Sequence record: PQ850604.1
Origin: Escherichia phage Haito_Bas83
Reading direction: 5' to 3' (one strand)
Length of the DNA stretch: 44,876 nt
Numbering within the stretch: position 1 is the stretch's first letter; each line of letters starts with the position of its first letter. The notes beneath the pieces were generated by a model. It ran no database searches. It saw nothing but the letters and a program-made list of their open reading frames with translations, and had not been told where the DNA came from. A program made the translations under genes and the position numbers. Positions 3,469 to 43,169 of the stretch are shown here, piece by piece.

Positions 3469-4555
3469 TCAACATATGGCGGATCGCATGATTCGCCGTC
3501 ACATCTTCACCCAGCGCCTGAGCAATGACCAGGCGCGGCGGGTGTTGGCTATGTGGGAGAAGTTCCGGCCCACGTTACTTGGTAAGCTGACCGAGTTACT
3601 TGATGGCAAAAAGTCCATGAATAACAAGGCACTGACCACTCTGTTAACACAAATCGACAAGACCGTCAAAACGGAACTGCGCACCGAGTTTAAAGCGCTG
3701 GCTGAAAGCCTTCAGGAGTTCGCCGACACCGAGGCTGATTATCTTGCCGATACATTAACGGCAGCGATCCAGCCAGCGGTCGCCGTACCTGCGGTTGAGG
3801 TAGTTGGCGTTGTGACCGGCGCGCAGATCGCAGCGACGGCTATGAAAAACCCATTCCAGGGAAACACCATGATGCAATGGCCTGATTCACTTTCTGAGTG
3901 GACCAGGACGCAGATCGGTAATCAGGTGCGCGCTGGATTCATCCAGGGAAAGCCGACTATGGAAATTATCGCGGACGTAAGGCGCGCGCTCGGCGGTCGT
4001 AGTGCGCAGGCAATCTCAAGCGTTGTTAAGTCCGCAGTAAACCACTATGCGGCGACCGCCCGCGAATTAATGGTAAAAGCTAATGACGATATTCTCGAAG
4101 GTCGCCAATGGTTGGCTACATTGGATACACACACATCACCTATGTGCCAGCTACGCGATCGCCTGTTTTATCCAGTTGATGTTACTCCCGACACCAAAGG
4201 AAAGCGCGGCGGGAAAGTGGTGGCTGGGACACAATATGGCGCTGGTCCGGGCAAGCTGCATTATTGCTGCCGGTCTACGGAGACGTGGAAAGTCAAAGGC
4301 ATGGAAGATTGGCCCAGTGGTAAGCGTCCGGCACTGAAGGCTGACGCGGGTCGATTGCTGAGTGAGCAGGTCGACGCGCAGACTGATTTCTTCTCATGGG
4401 TACAGCGCCAGCCGCGCCATATTCTGGAGGAATTATATGGGGTGCAGCGCGCAGACCAGATTATGCGCGGCGTGAAAGTGCCGAAGATGTTCACCGATAC
4501 TGGCGAACTAATGACTATCGCACAGATTAAAAACCGGGGGTTATGGCGTGATTAA
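3452..4555 (+). CDS. head morphogenesis protein (Mu F / SPP1 gp7-like)
   Basis: 367 aa, overlaps portal end; motif RQWLATLDTHTSPMCQLRDRLF typical of the F-like minor head protein domain. Confidence 0.65.
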   Translation: MARTINQHMADRMIRRHIFTQRLSNDQARRVLAMWEKFRPTLLGKLTELLDGKKSMNNKALTTLLTQIDKTVKTELRTEFKALAESLQEFADTEADYLADTLTAAIQPAVAVPAVEVVGVVTGAQIAATAMKNPFQGNTMMQWPDSLSEWTRTQIGNQVRAGFIQGKPTMEIIADVRRALGGRSAQAISSVVKSAVNHYAATARELMVKANDDILEGRQWLATLDTHTSPMCQLRDRLFYPVDVTPDTKGKRGGKVVAGTQYGAGPGKLHYCCRSTETWKVKGMEDWPSGKRPALKADAGRLLSEQVDAQTDFFSWVQRQPRHILEELYGVQRADQIMRGVKVPKMFTDTGELMTIAQIKNRGLWRD

Positions 4556-6122: not shown

Positions 6123-6157
6123 TTTGTTTTCCTTCATATCTCTGTTGGTGTGCAACC

Positions 6158-36917: not shown

Positions 36918-37247
36918 ATGCATATCAACGACGCAATCGAAATGTTAACTAAGACCGTTAGTTGTGAGACAAGCCGGTCCTGGGCTTATACCGATGCCGT
37001 TGGTGCGGCGTTATTTGAAATCGAACGCCTGCGCAGTGTCGAAAAAGAATTGCGCGCCAAGCTGGAATTACTCAACGGTACGGCAGCAAGCAAGCTGCAA
37101 AAACACAATGAAGAAATGGAAGAATACAAAAAGCAGGTTATCCGTTTACGCGACGAGGGCAAGTCCTGGGCGATGATTGCCGAGTTGACCGGAATTAATC
37201 AGAGCACCGTGCGCTCCTGGGTACGCAATAATAAAACTTCTAAGTAA
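36918..37247 (+). CDS. HTH DNA-binding protein (putative transcriptional regulator)
   Basis: 109 aa; helix-rich with C-terminal HTH-like KSWAMIAELTGINQSTVRSW; first gene of the rightward operon. Confidence 0.5.
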   Translation: MHINDAIEMLTKTVSCETSRSWAYTDAVGAALFEIERLRSVEKELRAKLELLNGTAASKLQKHNEEMEEYKKQVIRLRDEGKSWAMIAELTGINQSTVRSWVRNNKTSK

Positions 37248-37257
37248 GGCAACGGCA

Positions 37258-39522
37258 ATGAGCTTAATTAAATTCGCAGTAACAAGACCCGCTAAAAAAG
37301 GCGAAAAAGCCAGGGCGGAAAACTTCGAGATGACCACTGATGAGTTTTTCGAATTTATCAATGATGCGAAAGAAATCTCCTCGGTGCACATCAACAAGAC
37401 TGAAGATAAAGCCGAGTATGCGCGCCGCAAGCGTAAGGCCGATGGCATCGTGGCCTATACCAATGATGGGTTACGCCGCAAGACCAGTGCGGTCGACCGC
37501 TCGATCCTGTTCTTCGATATTGACCGCACCGACACCCGCACATTACGCCGCTGCCGTAAAGCGTTCACCGACGCTGGTCTGGAGCATGTATTCCACACCA
37601 CGACCGGCGACCGTCACCCACTGAAAGGCGGCACACGTTGCGCCCGTTTCCTGGTGCTCACTGACAAGCCTGTACCGGCTGAAGACCTGGGCCGCGTCCA
37701 GTATGCGCTATTAGACCAACTGGGCCTGTCAGATGTGGACTTCGACGATTGTACAAAAGACACCAACCGCCTTATGTACCTGCCTCACCAGCAGTCTGTC
37801 ATAAAGTGCCATTACGGCAAGCGCGCCCGTGTCCGTCGTCTGCTTCGCCTGGCTGACAAGCTGGGAGTTGAGAAAGAGGAAGTGCGCCGCGAACTGACCC
37901 AGGGTGATGACGGCGTGGCGGACGGCATTCTGGATTGGTGCTTCCAGGCTGGCTTTGAACCGCTGTCATCCGGTCGCGGTTATGAAGTGCCTTGCCCGAA
38001 CGAGCACCTGCATAGTGGCGAAGGGTCGACGGCTATCATGGTTAAGGATGGCGAGATCCGTTTCAAGTGTATGCACACCGGCAACGAGTGCTGTTCCGAA
38101 CTGAACAAACACCAGCACCTGGCGCTGCGTCTGATCGGCATTCCGGACCACCTGAACGTCGAACCTCACAACATGTCACGCAAGCAAATCGCCGCCATCC
38201 TTCCGGGACTGGACGACGAGGAAGTGGAATCGTGCTATGAGCATATTGTTGATGCGGTCGGAGACGGCGACGAGTACGGCGAATGCACCGACGCTGACCT
38301 GGACAACGAGCCGGTCGCACTATTCAGTAAGCACGACCCGATCATCGAAGGCCTGGTCAACTTCAAATCGACCTGGTATATGGCTGGTGAGTCGAACATT
38401 GGTAAGTCGTTCTACGTGCTGGGCCAGATGGGTGCTGTTGCCGCAGGTATTCCGTTCGGCGGTGCGAAGGTTGTCCAGTCGCATTGCTTCTATTTCGATG
38501 CGGAAGGCGGCGAAGCCTCAAACCAGCGTAAGGAAGCATTGCAGATTAAATATGAGCACGACCTCGACAAGCTGCACATTATCGATCTGCAATCACGCGG
38601 CTGGGATATCACCAGCAAGTCCGGCTTGCGCGAAGTTATCAGCTTTATCAACCGCACCGCTAACGGGGAGCCGGTTGGCCTGGTGGCCTTCGACTCACTA
38701 AACCAGACTGTAGCGCTGCGGTCCGCTGATGCCAAACCATTCGACGAGAACAACGCCAGCGATATGGGCGAAGTTGTCAAAGCGCTGAAGTCCATTGCGG
38801 AAAATACAGGCGGCAGTGCGGGCGTCATCCATCACCCGGCTAAGGGTGCAAACGGCAGCAGATCCCCACGCGGGTCCGGCGCGCTTCATGGTGCTGTCGA
38901 TTCTGCGTTCTTCCTGGAACAGCCGGACGACAACCAGCCAGGCCAGCTTAACCTGTATCACGAAAAATCACGTAACGGCATCAAGCAAGCTCCGCGCGGC
39001 TTCGTCCTGCTCAAGTGCAAGGTCAAGGTGGATCTCCGCAAGTCTGATGCGTTCGAAGCACACCAGTCCACCAGCACCGGACCAGACTTTGGTGATGTTG
39101 TTGCCGGTTGGGACGTCAAGCCGATCGCATCCACGCCACGTGACGAGACTCTCTACCTCGTACCGGTCGCCCTGGCACCGTTCGCTATCGAACAGGCGAA
39201 GGCAGCAGGCAAGGCAGCAGTTAAGGAAGAGAACACCGCCGGACCGCGCAACGAAAAAGAGAAGGTGCTTTATGCGGCACTGGAAAAACTGATGGAAGAT
39301 AACCCGGACCATACTGGATTCAGTAAATCGGCAATTGTCCGCCAGGCTGGACTTGCGAAAGGTGGCACATCGACGAAGGCAATCGACGATATGGTGGAGC
39401 GCGGAGTGCTCGGATTTTATACAGATCCACACACTGGGGCCATCTACGGGTCGTCGAATCTGGTCATCAAATCGGATATACCCATCACGCTTTCGGCGAC
39501 CGATGACGACCTGAAAGATTAA
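37258..39522 (+). CDS. DNA primase / RecA-fold replicative helicase (primase-helicase) with C-terminal winged-helix-like region
   Basis: Walker A GESNIGKS and Walker B-like GLVAFDSL; Cys/His cluster CPNEHLHSGEGS...CMHTGNEC; 754 aa; iteron region immediately downstream. Confidence 0.6.
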   Translation: MSLIKFAVTRPAKKGEKARAENFEMTTDEFFEFINDAKEISSVHINKTEDKAEYARRKRKADGIVAYTNDGLRRKTSAVDRSILFFDIDRTDTRTLRRCRKAFTDAGLEHVFHTTTGDRHPLKGGTRCARFLVLTDKPVPAEDLGRVQYALLDQLGLSDVDFDDCTKDTNRLMYLPHQQSVIKCHYGKRARVRRLLRLADKLGVEKEEVRRELTQGDDGVADGILDWCFQAGFEPLSSGRGYEVPCPNEHLHSGEGSTAIMVKDGEIRFKCMHTGNECCSELNKHQHLALRLIGIPDHLNVEPHNMSRKQIAAILPGLDDEEVESCYEHIVDAVGDGDEYGECTDADLDNEPVALFSKHDPIIEGLVNFKSTWYMAGESNIGKSFYVLGQMGAVAAGIPFGGAKVVQSHCFYFDAEGGEASNQRKEALQIKYEHDLDKLHIIDLQSRGWDITSKSGLREVISFINRTANGEPVGLVAFDSLNQTVALRSADAKPFDENNASDMGEVVKALKSIAENTGGSAGVIHHPAKGANGSRSPRGSGALHGAVDSAFFLEQPDDNQPGQLNLYHEKSRNGIKQAPRGFVLLKCKVKVDLRKSDAFEAHQSTSTGPDFGDVVAGWDVKPIASTPRDETLYLVPVALAPFAIEQAKAAGKAAVKEENTAGPRNEKEKVLYAALEKLMEDNPDHTGFSKSAIVRQAGLAKGGTSTKAIDDMVERGVLGFYTDPHTGAIYGSSNLVIKSDIPITLSATDDDLKD

Positions 39523-39628
39523 ATTTTGCGCGCATTGGTTGCCAAATTGAGTGTTTTTAGCTGGTCGCATTGGTTGCCGTGTAGTGTAAATATAGTGAAT
39601 AGTTATGCAGTTTTATTGCATAAAATAA

Positions 39629-39786
39629 GCGGGACAAAAAGCGGGACAGACAGGGGGCGGGACAAAGCGGGACAGCACCCCTTGTCCCGCCCGGATGGCG
39701 CGGCTTTCAGAGGAGCGGGACAGGCGGGACAAACCCCAGTCTTTCAGACTAGACGGGGGTCAGTTGGCCCCCCTCGTCTGAGACTG
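39629..39786. repeat. composite element copy B: GCGGGACA iteron array plus conserved long hairpin
   Basis: GCGGGACA at 39629, 39641, 39657, 39667, 39715 and 39724, inverted TGTCCCGC at 39683, hairpin at 39737-39786; near-identical to 11910-12065. Confidence 0.6.
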
Positions 39787-39945
39787 CATAAAATCCGGGA
39801 TTGCATAATGTACGGCAGCATGACGTGAATTGCGGTCGTCGACGAACTAGGCAACCAATGCGAGTTGTATTATGGGTGGTGAAAAATGCAGTTTGCAGTT
39901 ACAGCAGATAGCGATCAACTTTTTCATACGCATGATTAATATTGG

Positions 39946-39974
39946 TTGCATTCAGCCTGGCACCCTGCTAGATT
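39946..39974 (+). promoter_or_regulatory. putative promoter upstream of the 40005 gene block
   Basis: TTGCAT (inside ATTGGTTGCA), 17-bp spacer, TAGATT, followed by a second ATTGGTTGCA. Confidence 0.35.
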
Positions 39975-40004
39975 GGTTGCACCCCAACGAGAGGACCAAA
40001 CAAA

Positions 40005-40175
40005 ATGAAATTTCCAGTAACCATCAAAGACGGTAAATCAACTATCACCTTCACAAGCAACGACCAGGGCACCTATGAAAGCGGGGCGACTTGCATGTCT
40101 ACCCTGGACGATGTGATGATTCGTGTTAATTCCGGTAAAGCCTCGATTGTTGACGACAACACTAAGAAGGACTGA
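40005..40175 (+). CDS. small hypothetical protein (56 aa)
   Basis: RBS GAGGA; MKFPVTIKDGKSTITF...; not in the track (<60 aa). Confidence 0.35.
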   Translation: MKFPVTIKDGKSTITFTSNDQGTYESGATCMSTLDDVMIRVNSGKASIVDDNTKKD

Positions 40176-40178
40176 ACA

Positions 40179-40484
40179 ATGAGAGCATTAATCTGGAAAT
40201 ACTCACGGGCCATAGCGAAGCTGGACGAAGCGAAAAACACAAACGGCAACGTAGACTATGCGCGCCAGTTTGCGGCACGGGCACACCAACACATCATGAG
40301 TGCGCTCGACGATATGGACGCCAGCATGGATGACCTGGGTCCGCTGCGTAAGGCTATCCATGAATACGCGCTGGCATTCTCCCGTGAGCGCCTGGCCTAT
40401 CGCTTCGGTATCGGGGATAAGGCAGTGTCAAACGTCGCCCGGATTAAAGCACAGCGCGAACTATTCGCCCAGCTTGCGAAATAA
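40179..40484 (+). CDS. hypothetical protein
   Basis: 101-aa ORF closely following the previous gene. Confidence 0.45.
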   Translation: MRALIWKYSRAIAKLDEAKNTNGNVDYARQFAARAHQHIMSALDDMDASMDDLGPLRKAIHEYALAFSRERLAYRFGIGDKAVSNVARIKAQRELFAQLAK

Positions 40485-40493
40485 GGGGCCAAA

Positions 40494-40763
40494 ATGGGCC
40501 GTAGCCGAGCTAAACAGCTTTCTTGGCATATTCCCCTGCATTGCATACGAATATGGGCTAAGAACGCGATTGAGGGCGATTCCGTGTACTGGTGCTATCG
40601 CGATGACGTGAAGCCACTTACGCAGACCCGCTACTTGCACCAGTTCGCAGCACAACACGATTTCAGGGTGCGGACTTCCTTGCAACCAATGGGGATACGT
40701 ATTACATTACGCCGGAAGCCCGCCGTTGAGCGGGTAGGCAAACACTGGAGACTGAGCAAATGA
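40494..40763 (+). CDS. hypothetical protein
   Basis: 89-aa basic protein; RBS AAGGGG. Confidence 0.4.
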   Translation: MGRSRAKQLSWHIPLHCIRIWAKNAIEGDSVYWCYRDDVKPLTQTRYLHQFAAQHDFRVRTSLQPMGIRITLRRKPAVERVGKHWRLSK

Positions 40764-40893
40764 TGATAGGCGGATTCTCGCAGGAGTTTATCTACCTGCA
40801 TATGTGCGTACTTGACTACGAACAACACGGCATCGCTACGGTATGCGATGGCGACTATAAGACTGTTGACGAGATTGAGGAGACTGAGCAATG
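40759..40893 (+). CDS. small hypothetical protein (44 aa)
   Basis: ATG overlaps the upstream stop and its own stop overlaps the next ATG (ATGA). Confidence 0.25.
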
Positions 40894-41418
40894 AAATTAC
40901 TATTCCGCCGTAAGCGCGATGGATACATCATGAAGCCGATCCAGACCATGGCTAAATACGTGCGATTGCGCCACGTTCACAGCGGCATTGAGTGTATGAC
41001 GACTAAGGCAAATCTGCCGGAGGGGTACGACGTACTCACACATGATATTGAGCGCGGCGATGTGCTGCGTGATATTCGCCACGGCACTTGCTGGGTCGTC
41101 GAGTATGTCGGTCGGCACGGCTTGCGTATGCAATCCCGCGCGGATGGCGTAGTCGGGATGACTTACTTCGGGCTAATCCACTATGAGCGCGTGGGGCGCA
41201 AGTACAGCCTCCTCAAGTCGCAGCCGCATGAGCGCGCTACTTACGACGCGACCCAGGTGCAATCTAAAATACGCCGTGCTGCGCACGAAATCGTCAATCG
41301 CTTCGATGCCGTGGCGAATGCACAGCGCCATGCGCAGGAATTCGGTGTGGGATTTATCCGTGTCGAACCAGACGGCAGCATGAAGGCCATCGACCCGCGC
41401 TCGGTGATTCTGAAATGA
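40891..41418 (+). CDS. hypothetical protein
   Basis: 175 aa; RBS GAGGAG; no motif I recognise. Confidence 0.45.
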   Translation: MKLLFRRKRDGYIMKPIQTMAKYVRLRHVHSGIECMTTKANLPEGYDVLTHDIERGDVLRDIRHGTCWVVEYVGRHGLRMQSRADGVVGMTYFGLIHYERVGRKYSLLKSQPHERATYDATQVQSKIRRAAHEIVNRFDAVANAQRHAQEFGVGFIRVEPDGSMKAIDPRSVILK

Positions 41419-41561
41419 GCGCGACTATCCGTGATATGCTCATGCATAACCGCTTTGAGATAGGCGGGCGAGTGTTCTGCAATTACTTCGTGGCGCGTGC
41501 TTGGGCGCGCCATATTGGACAACCAGAGGGGGCAATACAATGCTATACATCCTCGCGATAA
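41415..41561 (+). CDS. small hypothetical protein (48 aa)
   Basis: ATG overlaps the upstream TGA; coding status uncertain. Confidence 0.2.
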   Translation: MSATIRDMLMHNRFEIGGRVFCNYFVARAWARHIGQPEGAIQCYTSSR

Positions 41562-41641
41562 TGTGCGGCGGCAGTCTTGCGGCCCTGGTCTTGTTGGCTG
41601 GGATTATCGGCCTGATTAAATACTTATGGTGCAAATTATGA
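41540..41641 (+). CDS. small membrane peptide (33 aa)
   Basis: RBS GAGGGGG; hydrophobic MLYILAIMCGGSLAALVLLAGIIGLIKYLW. Confidence 0.3.
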   Translation: MLYILAIMCGGSLAALVLLAGIIGLIKYLWCKL

Positions 41642-41925
41642 TACACGATCTGATATTTTGGTTTGGTTTGGGGTGTGCGTCGCTCTTTGCTATGGTGCTG
41701 GCGCTGCTGATTTGGATATTCCTGGTATGGCCCGCGGTGGAAGCAGCCAGCATTACCCGCATGACGTTCAAGATATACAAGCGCCGCGGCATATCGGAAC
41801 ACCCGACCAGGTTGCGCATGTGGTGGCTTTGGTATCTGGATATGATTGGCGGTCGAAGGTTTGAGGCCATCCGGTCATCCGGGTGGGAATGGAAAGGCGT
41901 CGGCAAGTGGTCCATTTTCGATTAA
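41638..41925 (+). CDS. membrane protein (putative)
   Basis: ATG overlaps the upstream stop (ATGA); one or two TM helices; Trp-rich. Confidence 0.4.
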   Translation: MIHDLIFWFGLGCASLFAMVLALLIWIFLVWPAVEAASITRMTFKIYKRRGISEHPTRLRMWWLWYLDMIGGRRFEAIRSSGWEWKGVGKWSIFD

Positions 41926-41942
41926 ATATGCAGTCGTGATAT

Positions 41943-41977
41943 AGTCCCAGTGAGCTAAAACTTACTGGGACTTTTTT
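41943..41977 (+). terminator. terminator hairpin immediately upstream of the lysis genes
   Basis: AGTCCCAGT-12 nt loop-ACTGGGACT plus TTTTTT, directly followed by ATG 41978. Confidence 0.5.
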
Positions 41978-42268
41978 ATGGATAAGCTAAACGAGTGGTT
42001 ATTCGCCCTCGCGTGTCTTGCAGGTGGCTTCGTTGGCGCTCGCATTCACGGTGAGGCAACGAAAGGGCCGCTAAATTTTGTGTTGTTTATCGTGGTCGGC
42101 TTCTTGTGCGCCGTGTTTGGGGCACCAGCTATTGCCGAGTGGTTTAATCTAACCGGACCGAGAACTGTCGCCGGTCTTGGCTTCGTAACGGCAATCTTCT
42201 GGATGCCGGTCGCCGCCAGAATCCGTGAAGCAATCTCCTCGTTCCGTCTGCCGGGGAATGCAAAATGA
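41978..42268 (+). CDS. holin (putative, three TM segments)
   Basis: 96 aa with three hydrophobic segments and a charged C-terminus; immediately upstream of the endolysin. Confidence 0.5.
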   Translation: MDKLNEWLFALACLAGGFVGARIHGEATKGPLNFVLFIVVGFLCAVFGAPAIAEWFNLTGPRTVAGLGFVTAIFWMPVAARIREAISSFRLPGNAK

Positions 42269-42504
42269 TTATCGCCATCCTGTTATTAGTGATCGGGGCT
42301 TCGTCGCTGTATAACGTATACGCGCCATCCGTCCAGGATGGCATTTGCGGACGGGTGCTCTACCTGCTTACAGCAATGACCTGTATTATTGGCCTGATGC
42401 AAACGGGGGACGTATCGAATACAGTCTGGTCCGTGCTAATCTGGCTATTCGCATTACGCACACTGCGTAATGCTGTTTTAAATGGGGTAAAACATGCGAT
42501 TTAG
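42265..42504 (+). CDS. second small membrane protein of lysis cassette (holin/antiholin-like)
   Basis: 79 aa, two hydrophobic helices; overlaps both neighbours. Confidence 0.4.
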   Translation: MIIAILLLVIGASSLYNVYAPSVQDGICGRVLYLLTAMTCIIGLMQTGDVSNTVWSVLIWLFALRTLRNAVLNGVKHAI

Positions 42505-43001: not shown

Positions 43002-43169
43002 ATGTTAAAAAGTATTCTTGATCATAACGCGGACGCGCTTGCCGCACTGGCTAAAACGGAAGACCCAGGCGCGCGCGCCATTATCGCGGACACTATCAGT
43101 CATGCGGGTGTCTTTGACGCGAAGCTGCCAAGCCCGCCACCGCCGGAAGAACCAGACCCAGCGGCATAA
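43002..43169 (+). CDS. small hypothetical protein (55 aa)
   Basis: RBS AAGAGGAAACACAGT-ATG; Pro-rich acidic C-terminus; the longer track ORF 42765-43169 overlaps the endolysin and is rejected. Confidence 0.35.
   Translation: MLKSILDHNADALAALAKTEDPGARAIIADTISHAGVFDAKLPSPPPPEEPDPAA

Follow-up and report, generated by a model that had tools for sequence, protein, structure and literature searches.

The nin region of lambdoid phages (ninA-ninI, from O/P to Q) is a run of approximately ten small open reading frames (ORFs) with overlapping stop and start codons, located on the same strand after the replication genes and origin and before the late-control and lysis genes, and mosaic among related phages. 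In lambda the region is dispensable (nin5 deletion). The analysis presented here concerns a block of similar position and organization in Escherichia phage Haito_Bas83 (sequence record PQ850604.1; 44,876 nucleotides, the whole of which is referred to as the window). The block spans positions 40005-41925 and consists of eight small ORFs, designated o1 to o8, between an iteron region and the lysis genes. The best reading of this locus, held with a probability of roughly 0.55, is that of a lambda nin-like and probably dispensable accessory operon. The phage is a member of the Dhillonvirus group, which is among the most often isolated groups of coliphages and has found use in phage engineering aimed at therapy as well as in the BASEL reference collection.

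According to comparison of the sequences with those of related phages, the operon is a mosaic of five core genes found across the genus (o2, o3, o5, o6, and o8) and three cassettes of low GC content (o1, o4, and o7). All eight ORFs of 33-175 amino acids (aa) reported in the first-pass annotation of the window were present as described:

40005-40175, + strand: o1, 56 aa, acidic accessory cassette with a mobile small domain
40179-40484, + strand: o2, 101 aa, basic helical core protein with a hypervariable middle and a helix-turn-helix (HTH)-like C-terminal segment (approximately residues 68-86)
40494-40763, + strand: o3, 89 aa, core protein with an isoelectric point (pI) of 10.9 and a predicted two-layer alpha/beta fold
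40747-40891, + strand: o4 cassette, located between two 13-nt direct repeats (ORF 40760-40894, 44 aa, pI 4.1)
40891-41418, + strand: o5, 175 aa, basic two-module core protein with a predicted N-terminal SH3/Tudor-like barrel and a conserved C-terminal domain (approximately residues 134-175)
41415-41561, + strand: o6, 48 aa, basic and highly conserved core protein
41540-41641, + strand: o7, 33 aa, predicted single-transmembrane (TM) peptide, optional 99-nt cassette
41638-41925, + strand: o8, 95 aa (99 aa from the ATG at 41626), predicted core membrane protein in which an invariant C-terminal domain rich in Trp and Arg follows a variable N-terminal TM segment

A megablast search with positions 39500-42500 matched 158 phage records, nearly all of Escherichia phages. 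The best match was RuthEpting_Bas85 (PQ850624; 44,889 bp), with 99.8% identity across the entire query. Relatives with a genus classification belonged to Dhillonvirus (HK578-like siphoviruses), the genus in which RuthEpting is placed by the BASEL paper, and the window is the complete genome of a known virulent Dhillonvirus coliphage that belongs to the second BASEL collection. The eight ORFs correspond to coding sequences (CDSs) Bas85_0058-0065 of PQ850624, each of which is labelled 'hypothetical protein', and the same record annotates a 'replicative helicase-primase' on the 5' flank and two holins and an endolysin on the 3' flank. The comparative set consisted of 15 related loci and the Bas85 record itself, and the tblastn survey covered 50,697 phage records.

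The division into core and cassettes was apparent in both occurrence and composition. Homologues of o2 and o3 were each found in 156 phage records, o6 in 151 records at 82-100% identity, and o4 in 104 records, and all tblastn matches of these four fell within the Dhillonvirus-like set recovered by megablast. The o1 homologues were found in only 25 phage records, unrelated phages included, and o7 was present in 9 of the 16 loci. GC content was 0.46-0.48 for o1, o4, and o7 (0.456 for o1) and 0.52-0.56 for the core genes, with a genome value of 0.544. Furthermore, part of the core was retained in L019, a more distant phage contig with a helicase-primase only 69% identical to that of the window. 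L019 keeps, in the same order, an N-terminally extended o3 homologue (31% identity), the o5 C-terminal domain encoded on its own (63 aa), a homologue of o6 that is not annotated, and, in the same position, a homologue of o8 (44% identity); o2, o4, o7, and the N-terminal part of o5 are missing. Since these elements persist in L019, the conserved backbone consists of o3, the o5 C-terminal domain, o6, and o8; conservation of o2 and of full-length o5 is at the level of the genus.

Several lines of evidence identify the eight ORFs, as judged by their substitution patterns, as genuine protein-coding genes. The ORFs fill 1909 of the 1921 nt in the interval (99.4%), and ATG-initiated ORFs of at least 33 aa in any + frame cover 100% of it, compared to a mean of 37% and a maximum of 77% across 500 shuffles. 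Pooled ratios of nonsynonymous to synonymous polymorphism (pN/pS) were below 1 for all eight: 0.14 for o6, 0.19 for o3, 0.25 for o8, 0.30 for o1 (n=4), 0.34 for both o4 and o5, 0.44 for o7 (n=9), and 0.55 for o2. Reference values were 0.09 and 0.15 for the holins and 0.08 for the endolysin. Pairwise differences by codon position followed the order 3 > 1 > 2 in seven of the eight ORFs, o7 being the exception, and indels among relatives comprised whole codons. The first-pass annotation had named unconserved noise absent from relatives as an outcome that would count against the ORFs; the frames are kept in relatives, with purifying selection on all eight.

The junctions between the ORFs are closely packed and themselves conserved. 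Stop/start overlaps of the ATGA and TAATG types had been proposed for the chain, and the former was found at four of the seven junctions (o3/o4, o4/o5, o5/o6, and o7/o8) and the latter at none. The o6/o7 junction is a 22-nt overlap, o2/o3 is a 9-nt spacer bearing the Shine-Dalgarno (SD) sequence AAGGGG, and o1/o2 is a 3-nt spacer, the two ORFs sharing a frame with TGA and one codon between them. This layout was kept in 16 loci. An SD sequence lies 5-10 nt ahead of most starts (for o2, AAGGA 7 nt upstream) and is weak for o6 and o8, for which reason translation of these two probably relies on coupling to the upstream ORF. The packed layout on the same strand as the helicase-primase and the coding-type substitutions bear out the structural part of the earlier interpretation, with translational coupling suggested by the sequence layout.

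Flanking the o4 cassette, the 13-nt direct repeat GGAGACTGAGCAA occurs at 40747-40759 and 40879-40891 (two copies compared to 0.03 expected), and includes the SD sequence and extends into the ATGA stop/start overlap. Phages without o4 have a single copy of GGAGACTGAGCAA and o3 directly overlapping o5, and phage Oekolampad has three copies flanking two cassettes. The cassettes found in this slot belong to at least three unrelated families. The slot of o1, between the upstream regulatory region and o2, is similarly variable: it is empty in 8 of the 16 loci, and elsewhere it is occupied by a small gene of the o1, HK578 gp48, or CS16 type, which are unrelated to one another. An o1 homologue is located inside the left-end small-gene array of the Autographiviridae phage PAS7, and the o1 domain was also detected in Aeromonas jumbo phages; in a Klebsiella phage of the Drexlerviridae it makes up the N-terminal portion of a 132-aa protein. 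Four relatives (jat, GeorgBuechner, Oekolampad, and EE09) have o1 and o2 as a single 159-aa ORF, with CGA where the window has TGA. Since SP1 and WF5505 are annotated with o1 and o2 split, each state is in circulation, and the stop codon is no error peculiar to this genome.

The third cassette, o7, is gained or lost as an exact unit. In loci without o7, o8 begins at the SD sequence and ATG that o7 uses in the window, and the ATG at 41638 is the o8 start common to all 16 loci. The coding support for o7 is the thinnest of the eight, with the pN/pS of 0.44 (n=9) and no third-position excess, and its TM character is kept. The o7 product is hydrophobic from end to end, with Kyte-Doolittle 19-residue windows above 1.6 over residues 1-33, and o8 has such windows over residues 2-40, which suggests that both are membrane proteins. 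A duplication of the o8 TM segment was considered as the origin of o7; BLASTP detected no similarity between the two. A lipobox was considered for o8, and the Cys of its FGLGC sequence does not match one and is not kept in relatives.

Within the core genes, variability differs between segments. In o2, residues 15-54 had a pN/pS of 0.72 and residues 55-101 one of 0.32; in o8, the TM segment had a value of 0.50 and the C-terminal domain one of 0.11. The variable segments (o2 residues 15-54, o5 residues 20-49, and the o8 TM segment) had raised values of both pN and pS, with pN/pS of 0.5-0.7; the joint rise suggests old alleles reassorted by recombination rather than ongoing positive selection. 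The conserved C-terminal segment of o2, RERLAYRFGIGxxAxxNxARIxAQ, was matched weakly by HTH_Tnp_4 in 10 of 12 members (best E 0.038, below threshold), and the 12.4 bits obtained compare with a cutoff of 27, so that family membership is not supported and a weak HTH is suggested. Model predictions suggest that o3 is a basic α/β protein of SepF-like fold and that the o5 N-terminus is an SH3/Tudor-like barrel. The o5 barrel was likened to the RNA-polymerase-binding Tudor-like domains of CarD, UvrD, and Mfd, a likeness that was weighed against generic small barrels and that derives from a predicted model. The N- and C-terminal modules of o5 were also found apart from each other. Clustering at 90% identity yielded 435 clusters for o5 and 41 for o8, and for both the contigs listed with full-length members are approximately 44 kb. 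In agreement with the earlier description of several products as basic or membrane-embedded, o2, o3, o5, o6, and o8 had a pI of 9.5-10.9 and o7 and o8 a TM stretch; o1 (pI 5.1) and o4 (pI 4.1) were acidic.

Homology searches assigned no function to these proteins, and neither did any solved structure or paper. The absence of a recognisable motif, reported previously, was upheld: Pfam and NCBIfam returned nothing at threshold for the eight proteins, and all PHROG matches were of unknown function. Full-length membership in PHROG families 9839, 12533, 15977, 10243, 13628, and 2531 was found for o2, o3, o4, o5, o6, and o8 (E 4e-28 to 2e-81), and it adds no mechanism because all six families are labelled 'unknown function'. 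Sequence-profile searches of the PDB with o2, o3, and o8 yielded either no match or matches at chance level (eL20, E 0.27; PSII D1, E 1.2). An exhaustive profile search with o5 across 1.8 billion representatives gave 29 matches, mainly fragments of the same family, and o5 matches to long Gram-positive pilin proteins (FctA/SpaA repeats) were set aside as repeat-driven matches of beta-rich sequence. A structure-based search (BFVD), which had been proposed as a check, recovered uncharacterised phage proteins alone. No match to antiterminator families of the Q or N type was obtained in Pfam up to E 1 or in NCBIfam up to 0.1, and no family of Nin proteins (NinB/Orf, NinG/Rap, NinH, the NinI phosphatase, and others) reached threshold in Pfam or NCBIfam for any of the eight. 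The BASEL papers are silent on these genes.

The block is framed by the following features, which agree with its earlier placement between the iterons and the lysis cassette:

37258-39522, same strand as the ORF chain: helicase-primase gene, upstream neighbour
39626-39733: iterons, between the helicase-primase gene and the ORF chain
39941-39980, + strand: promoter-/operator-like region with two direct copies of ATTGGTTGC, at 39941 and 39972, 31 bp apart
39946-39951 and 39969-39974, + strand: -35-like TTGCAT and -10-like TAGATT with a 17-nt spacer, inside the promoter-like region
41937-41977, + strand: 3' boundary element, an intrinsic terminator with its stem at 41943-41972 and a T tract to 41977
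41937-41945, + strand: extended -10-like TGATATAGT, overlapping the 5' arm of the terminator and invariant in 16 loci
41978, + strand: ATG of the first holin gene, downstream neighbour

Upstream of the chain, an inverted copy of ATTGGTTGC at 39851 accompanies the two direct copies. This layout is kept in the 15 related loci and Bas85, one locus having a substitution in the second copy, and the region is always located just 5' of whichever ORF opens the chain. The -10-like TAGATT reads TATATT in some relatives, and with TTGCAT it would constitute a moderate sigma-70 promoter. The 9-mer ATTGGTTGC is present in 13 copies in the genome compared to 0.5 expected, a 26-fold enrichment (positions 6152, 22267, 25299, 27203, 27220, 30161, 39534, 39569, 39851, 39941, 39972, 40682, and 43235). 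Most copies form direct or inverted pairs, and their locations are upstream or intergenic; in several cases TTGC lies 17 nt ahead of a TATAGT/TAGATT-like hexamer, and the leaders that follow the copies at 39972 and 6152 look alike. The motif is retained in L019, and overall ATTGGTTGC looks like a phage-specific promoter or operator box. Of the candidate binders of this box, o2 is less likely because L019 has the boxes and no o2. A 109-aa protein encoded just 5' of the helicase-primase gene (36918-37247, + strand; labelled 'transposase' in Bas85) has a weak sigma-70 region-4-like HTH (TIGR02937, E 2.6e-4, below cutoff) and is 74% identical in L019; this protein is the better candidate because it is conserved there alongside the boxes.

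The 3' boundary is formed by a GC-rich 12-bp stem followed by T6, 18 nt past o8, with a folding energy of -25.7 kcal/mol (z -4.9). The 52-nt spacer between o8 and the holin gene is nearly invariant in 16 loci, and L019 has no terminator hairpin ahead of its holin. The holin SD sequence (GGGA) is located within the 3' arm of the terminator. The TGATATAGT match is single in the genome yet not statistically unusual, and a promoter function may be proposed for it; RNA begun approximately 7 nt past it would lack the 5' arm, and therefore no terminator would form and the holin SD sequence would be unpaired. A match to Rfam NsiR1 at 41927-41979 (29.2 bits compared to a gathering score of 39) represents the terminator hairpin and not a member of that small RNA family. 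A scan of 40005-41925 detected no + strand promoter-like or terminator-like site, and with conserved signals on both flanks and none inside, the block therefore looks like one operon ending at the terminator.

Natural disruptions of the operon bear on its dispensability. Frameshifts were found in o5 of CS16 and in o8 of EE09, both isolated phages, and o3 is missing its first 35-40 codons in a slur05-like locus (L005). [quoted passage not shown] Large deletions in the operon therefore arise in nature.

Under the nin-like reading, transcription would start at the ATTGGTTGC promoter-like region, approximately 25 nt ahead of the first ORF, and would end at the genus-invariant intrinsic terminator beyond o8, producing a single putative transcript. 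Translation would then move down the chain via ATGA overlaps or short SD-bearing spacers, with coupling suggested by the layout, and o1, o4, and o7 would be gained, lost, and swapped by recombination at the conserved coupling junctions. The block would be the functional counterpart of lambda nin, a set of individually dispensable accessory genes that are neither structural nor enzymatic. Its core would supply small basic factors binding nucleic acid or polymerase (o2 with its HTH, o3, and the o5 barrel) together with the membrane-anchored o8, and these products may tune the middle phase of the phage itself. The cassettes would be host-interaction morons with possible roles in takeover, exclusion, or counter-defence. 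A number of observations weigh against this reading. The candidate promoter is a weak sigma-70 match (3 of 6 positions in the -35 element) and was missed by a stricter sigma-70 scan, and the middle-phase timing of expression is putative. Proteomics of EE09-infected cells detected only CDS29, 40, 56, and 61 and none of the products of the block, though these were just four phage proteins. The frameshifts in CS16 and EE09 could be sequencing errors; if they are not, the isolation of these phages would imply that o5 and o8 are not strictly needed for laboratory growth. Finally, the strong conservation of o3, o6, and o8 could reflect essentiality in natural hosts.

The first-pass annotation had surmised that small genes of this kind serve host takeover or anti-defence, and this fits o1, o4, o7, and the variable segments and does not fit the conserved o3, o6, and o8. 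The cassettes are moron-like because they are patchy, low in GC, and alternate with unrelated genes in a slot. By comparison o3, o6, and the o8 soluble domain rank with the best-conserved sequences of this genome region, a pattern uncommon in arms-race genes: their pN/pS is 0.11-0.20, o3 and o6 are found in 151-156 of approximately 158 records, and they are kept in L019. Extending the surmise to the whole block, as an island in which each protein inhibits a host process or a defence system, is rather unlikely. The small genes do sit within a non-structural operon, o2 and o5 are partly hypervariable, cassettes are exchanged at the junctions, o1 is held in common with the left-end small-gene array of an Autographiviridae phage, o4 is acidic, and the natural loss variants suggest conditional usefulness. 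However, o3, o6, and the o8 C-terminal domain are near-universal, under strong purifying selection, and kept in a distant relative, and the variable segments combine high pN with high pS, which suggests mosaic alleles of some age rather than rapid positive selection. Furthermore, the characterized genes of this type are encoded elsewhere. The Dhillonvirus anti-Tmn, a counter-defence protein, is encoded by SM_S22 as ORF35, at approximately 25-26 kb among the reverse-strand genes of DNA metabolism, and the SM_S22 homologues of o2-o8 are CDS0058-0064 at 40.1-41.9 kb. Ksap1 of SECphi18, the 74-aa trigger of the defence system KpAvs2, lies between methyltransferase and phosphatase genes, so that both candidates were rejected as products of the block. 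In the literature searched, no escape mutations were located in these genes: those to RAZR, Retron-Eco8, Borvo, and OLD in SECphi18 or HK578 affect the portal, SSB, polymerase, gp43, the gp45 promoter, and gp46.

A role of the core in a late switch or in lysis timing is suggested by the order of replication genes, small ORFs, terminator, and holin, which is that of lambdoid phages. In such a module one or more of the products of o2, o3, o5, and o6 would carry expression past the terminator, whether by modifying RNA polymerase or by activating a promoter, like lambda Q at PR'-tR', and o7 and o8 would modulate holin triggering. The T tract reaches the holin ATG and leaves no space for a downstream promoter, the holin SD sequence is sited in the hairpin 3' arm, the predicted o5 barrel may resemble the Tudor-like domains named above, an HTH-like segment is present in o2, and the predicted membrane protein o8 adjoins the holins. 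The module is nonetheless improbable given that the proteins lack similarity to Q, N, and other antiterminator families, that L019 keeps o3, o6, and o8 without a terminator hairpin before the holin, that plaques are formed by isolates in which o5 or o8 is apparently disrupted, and that the extended -10 in the terminator offers a factor-independent route to holin expression. As for o7 and o8 as lysis proteins, the pair have the expected TM segments but lie outside the lysis transcription unit, with a strong terminator before the holins, and searches for lysis-family homology found none, the PHROG families matched being of unknown function. A version in which a small core protein that binds polymerase or DNA controls a terminator whose 5' arm holds the holin promoter, an undescribed late-switch system, is slightly more doubtful still. 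Upstream transcripts would halt with the holin ribosome-binding site locked in the hairpin, and transcripts begun inside the hairpin would escape and expose the site; if true, this would be a new mode of lysis timing in a virulent siphovirus. It is very unlikely that the core products assist replication or recombination (for example in origin binding, loading, or annealing) together with the adjacent origin and helicase-primase. The genes are directly 3' of both and several products are basic, but homology to replication or recombination families is lacking, the leftward operon already has a polymerase, helicase, SSB/annealing protein, and exonuclease, and the OLD escape mutations of HK578 (gp43, the gp45 promoter, and gp46) miss gp48-54. 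Least credible is the suggestion that some or all of the ORFs are untranslated chance frames. The lack of a third-position excess and the sparse comparative data for o7, along with the absence of proteomic detection on record, would agree with it; against it stand the retention of all frames, the pN/pS values below 1, the whole-codon indels, coverage far above that of shuffles, conserved start codons and SD sequences, and, for o7, the kept TM character and its precise unit of gain and loss.

A number of observations concern the flanks of the block. Bas85 CDSs 0056 and 0057 (window 39526-39828 and 39872-40036, + strand) overlap the iteron origin and the ATTGGTTGC promoter-like region and may be over-annotations whose apparent conservation perhaps reflects just conserved DNA signals. 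A long imperfect hairpin, CAGACTAGACGGGGG...CCCCCCTCGTCTGAG, seen by eye and without a T tract, is located just 3' of the iterons (39740-39795, + strand). It is also recognisable in L019 (approximately 3900-3950), whose iterons differ (GGTGTGGCAA), and the CS16 record annotates a terminator in its general area (locus 1642-1669). The GenBank Dhillonvirus records SP1 (L025) and WF5505 (L026) begin 103 nt 5' of o1, within the promoter-like region (approximately 39902), and the WF5505 record, at 47 kb, exceeds its relatives; this shared start could be a mapped physical end or terminal redundancy, or it could be merely arbitrary. The gene 3' of the endolysin (approximately 43005-43169, + strand) has a short 55-aa form in the window, jat, and Oekolampad and a 133-137-aa form in HK578, GeorgBuechner, EE09, L019, and L020, the latter form having a Big_2 (Ig-like) domain where domain annotation is recorded (HK578 and L020).

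The most useful results of this analysis are the map of core and cassette genes, the 13-nt junction repeat, and the split/fused o1-o2 polymorphism. The map marks o1, o4, and o7 as candidates for effects on host range and counter-defence and o3, o6, and o8 as candidates for phage-intrinsic functions, and the 13-nt junction represents a natural, tolerated insertion site for payload genes. Nothing in the evidence indicates a new kind of system, and the locus is best described by comparison with known ones. The closest is the lambdoid nin region, with which the block shares its position after the replication genes and origin and before late-control or lysis genes on the same strand, its run of small ORFs with overlapping stop and start codons, and its mosaic structure. 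For the block, dispensability is suggested by natural disruptions. In contrast to nin, it shows no similarity to Nin sequences or families, its phage is virulent rather than temperate and has no Q homologue after the block, and it has its own promoter-like region and a terminator abutting the holin gene.

At the level of single genes, o1, o4, and o7 resemble morons and the T7 class I genes 0.3-0.7 in being small, patchy, and low in GC, and the PAS7 array contains an o1 homologue. Classic morons bring their own promoter and terminator, whereas these cassettes have neither signal and are spliced into a coupled chain at an SD-stop/start junction. At the 3' boundary only, the block is comparable to the PR'-tR'/Q arrangement of lambda, having a strong intrinsic terminator directly 5' of the holin, and lysis-gene expression must therefore either pass this terminator or begin inside it. 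Unlike the lambda arrangement, the block has neither a Q-like protein nor a 6S-type leader, its sole promoter-like element at this boundary is the extended -10 over the hairpin 5' arm, and its terminator is missing in the distant relative L019. Overall, the locus is an ordinary conserved block of hypothetical genes, catalogued under that label in more than 150 genomes, and a non-homologous example of a familiar phage region.

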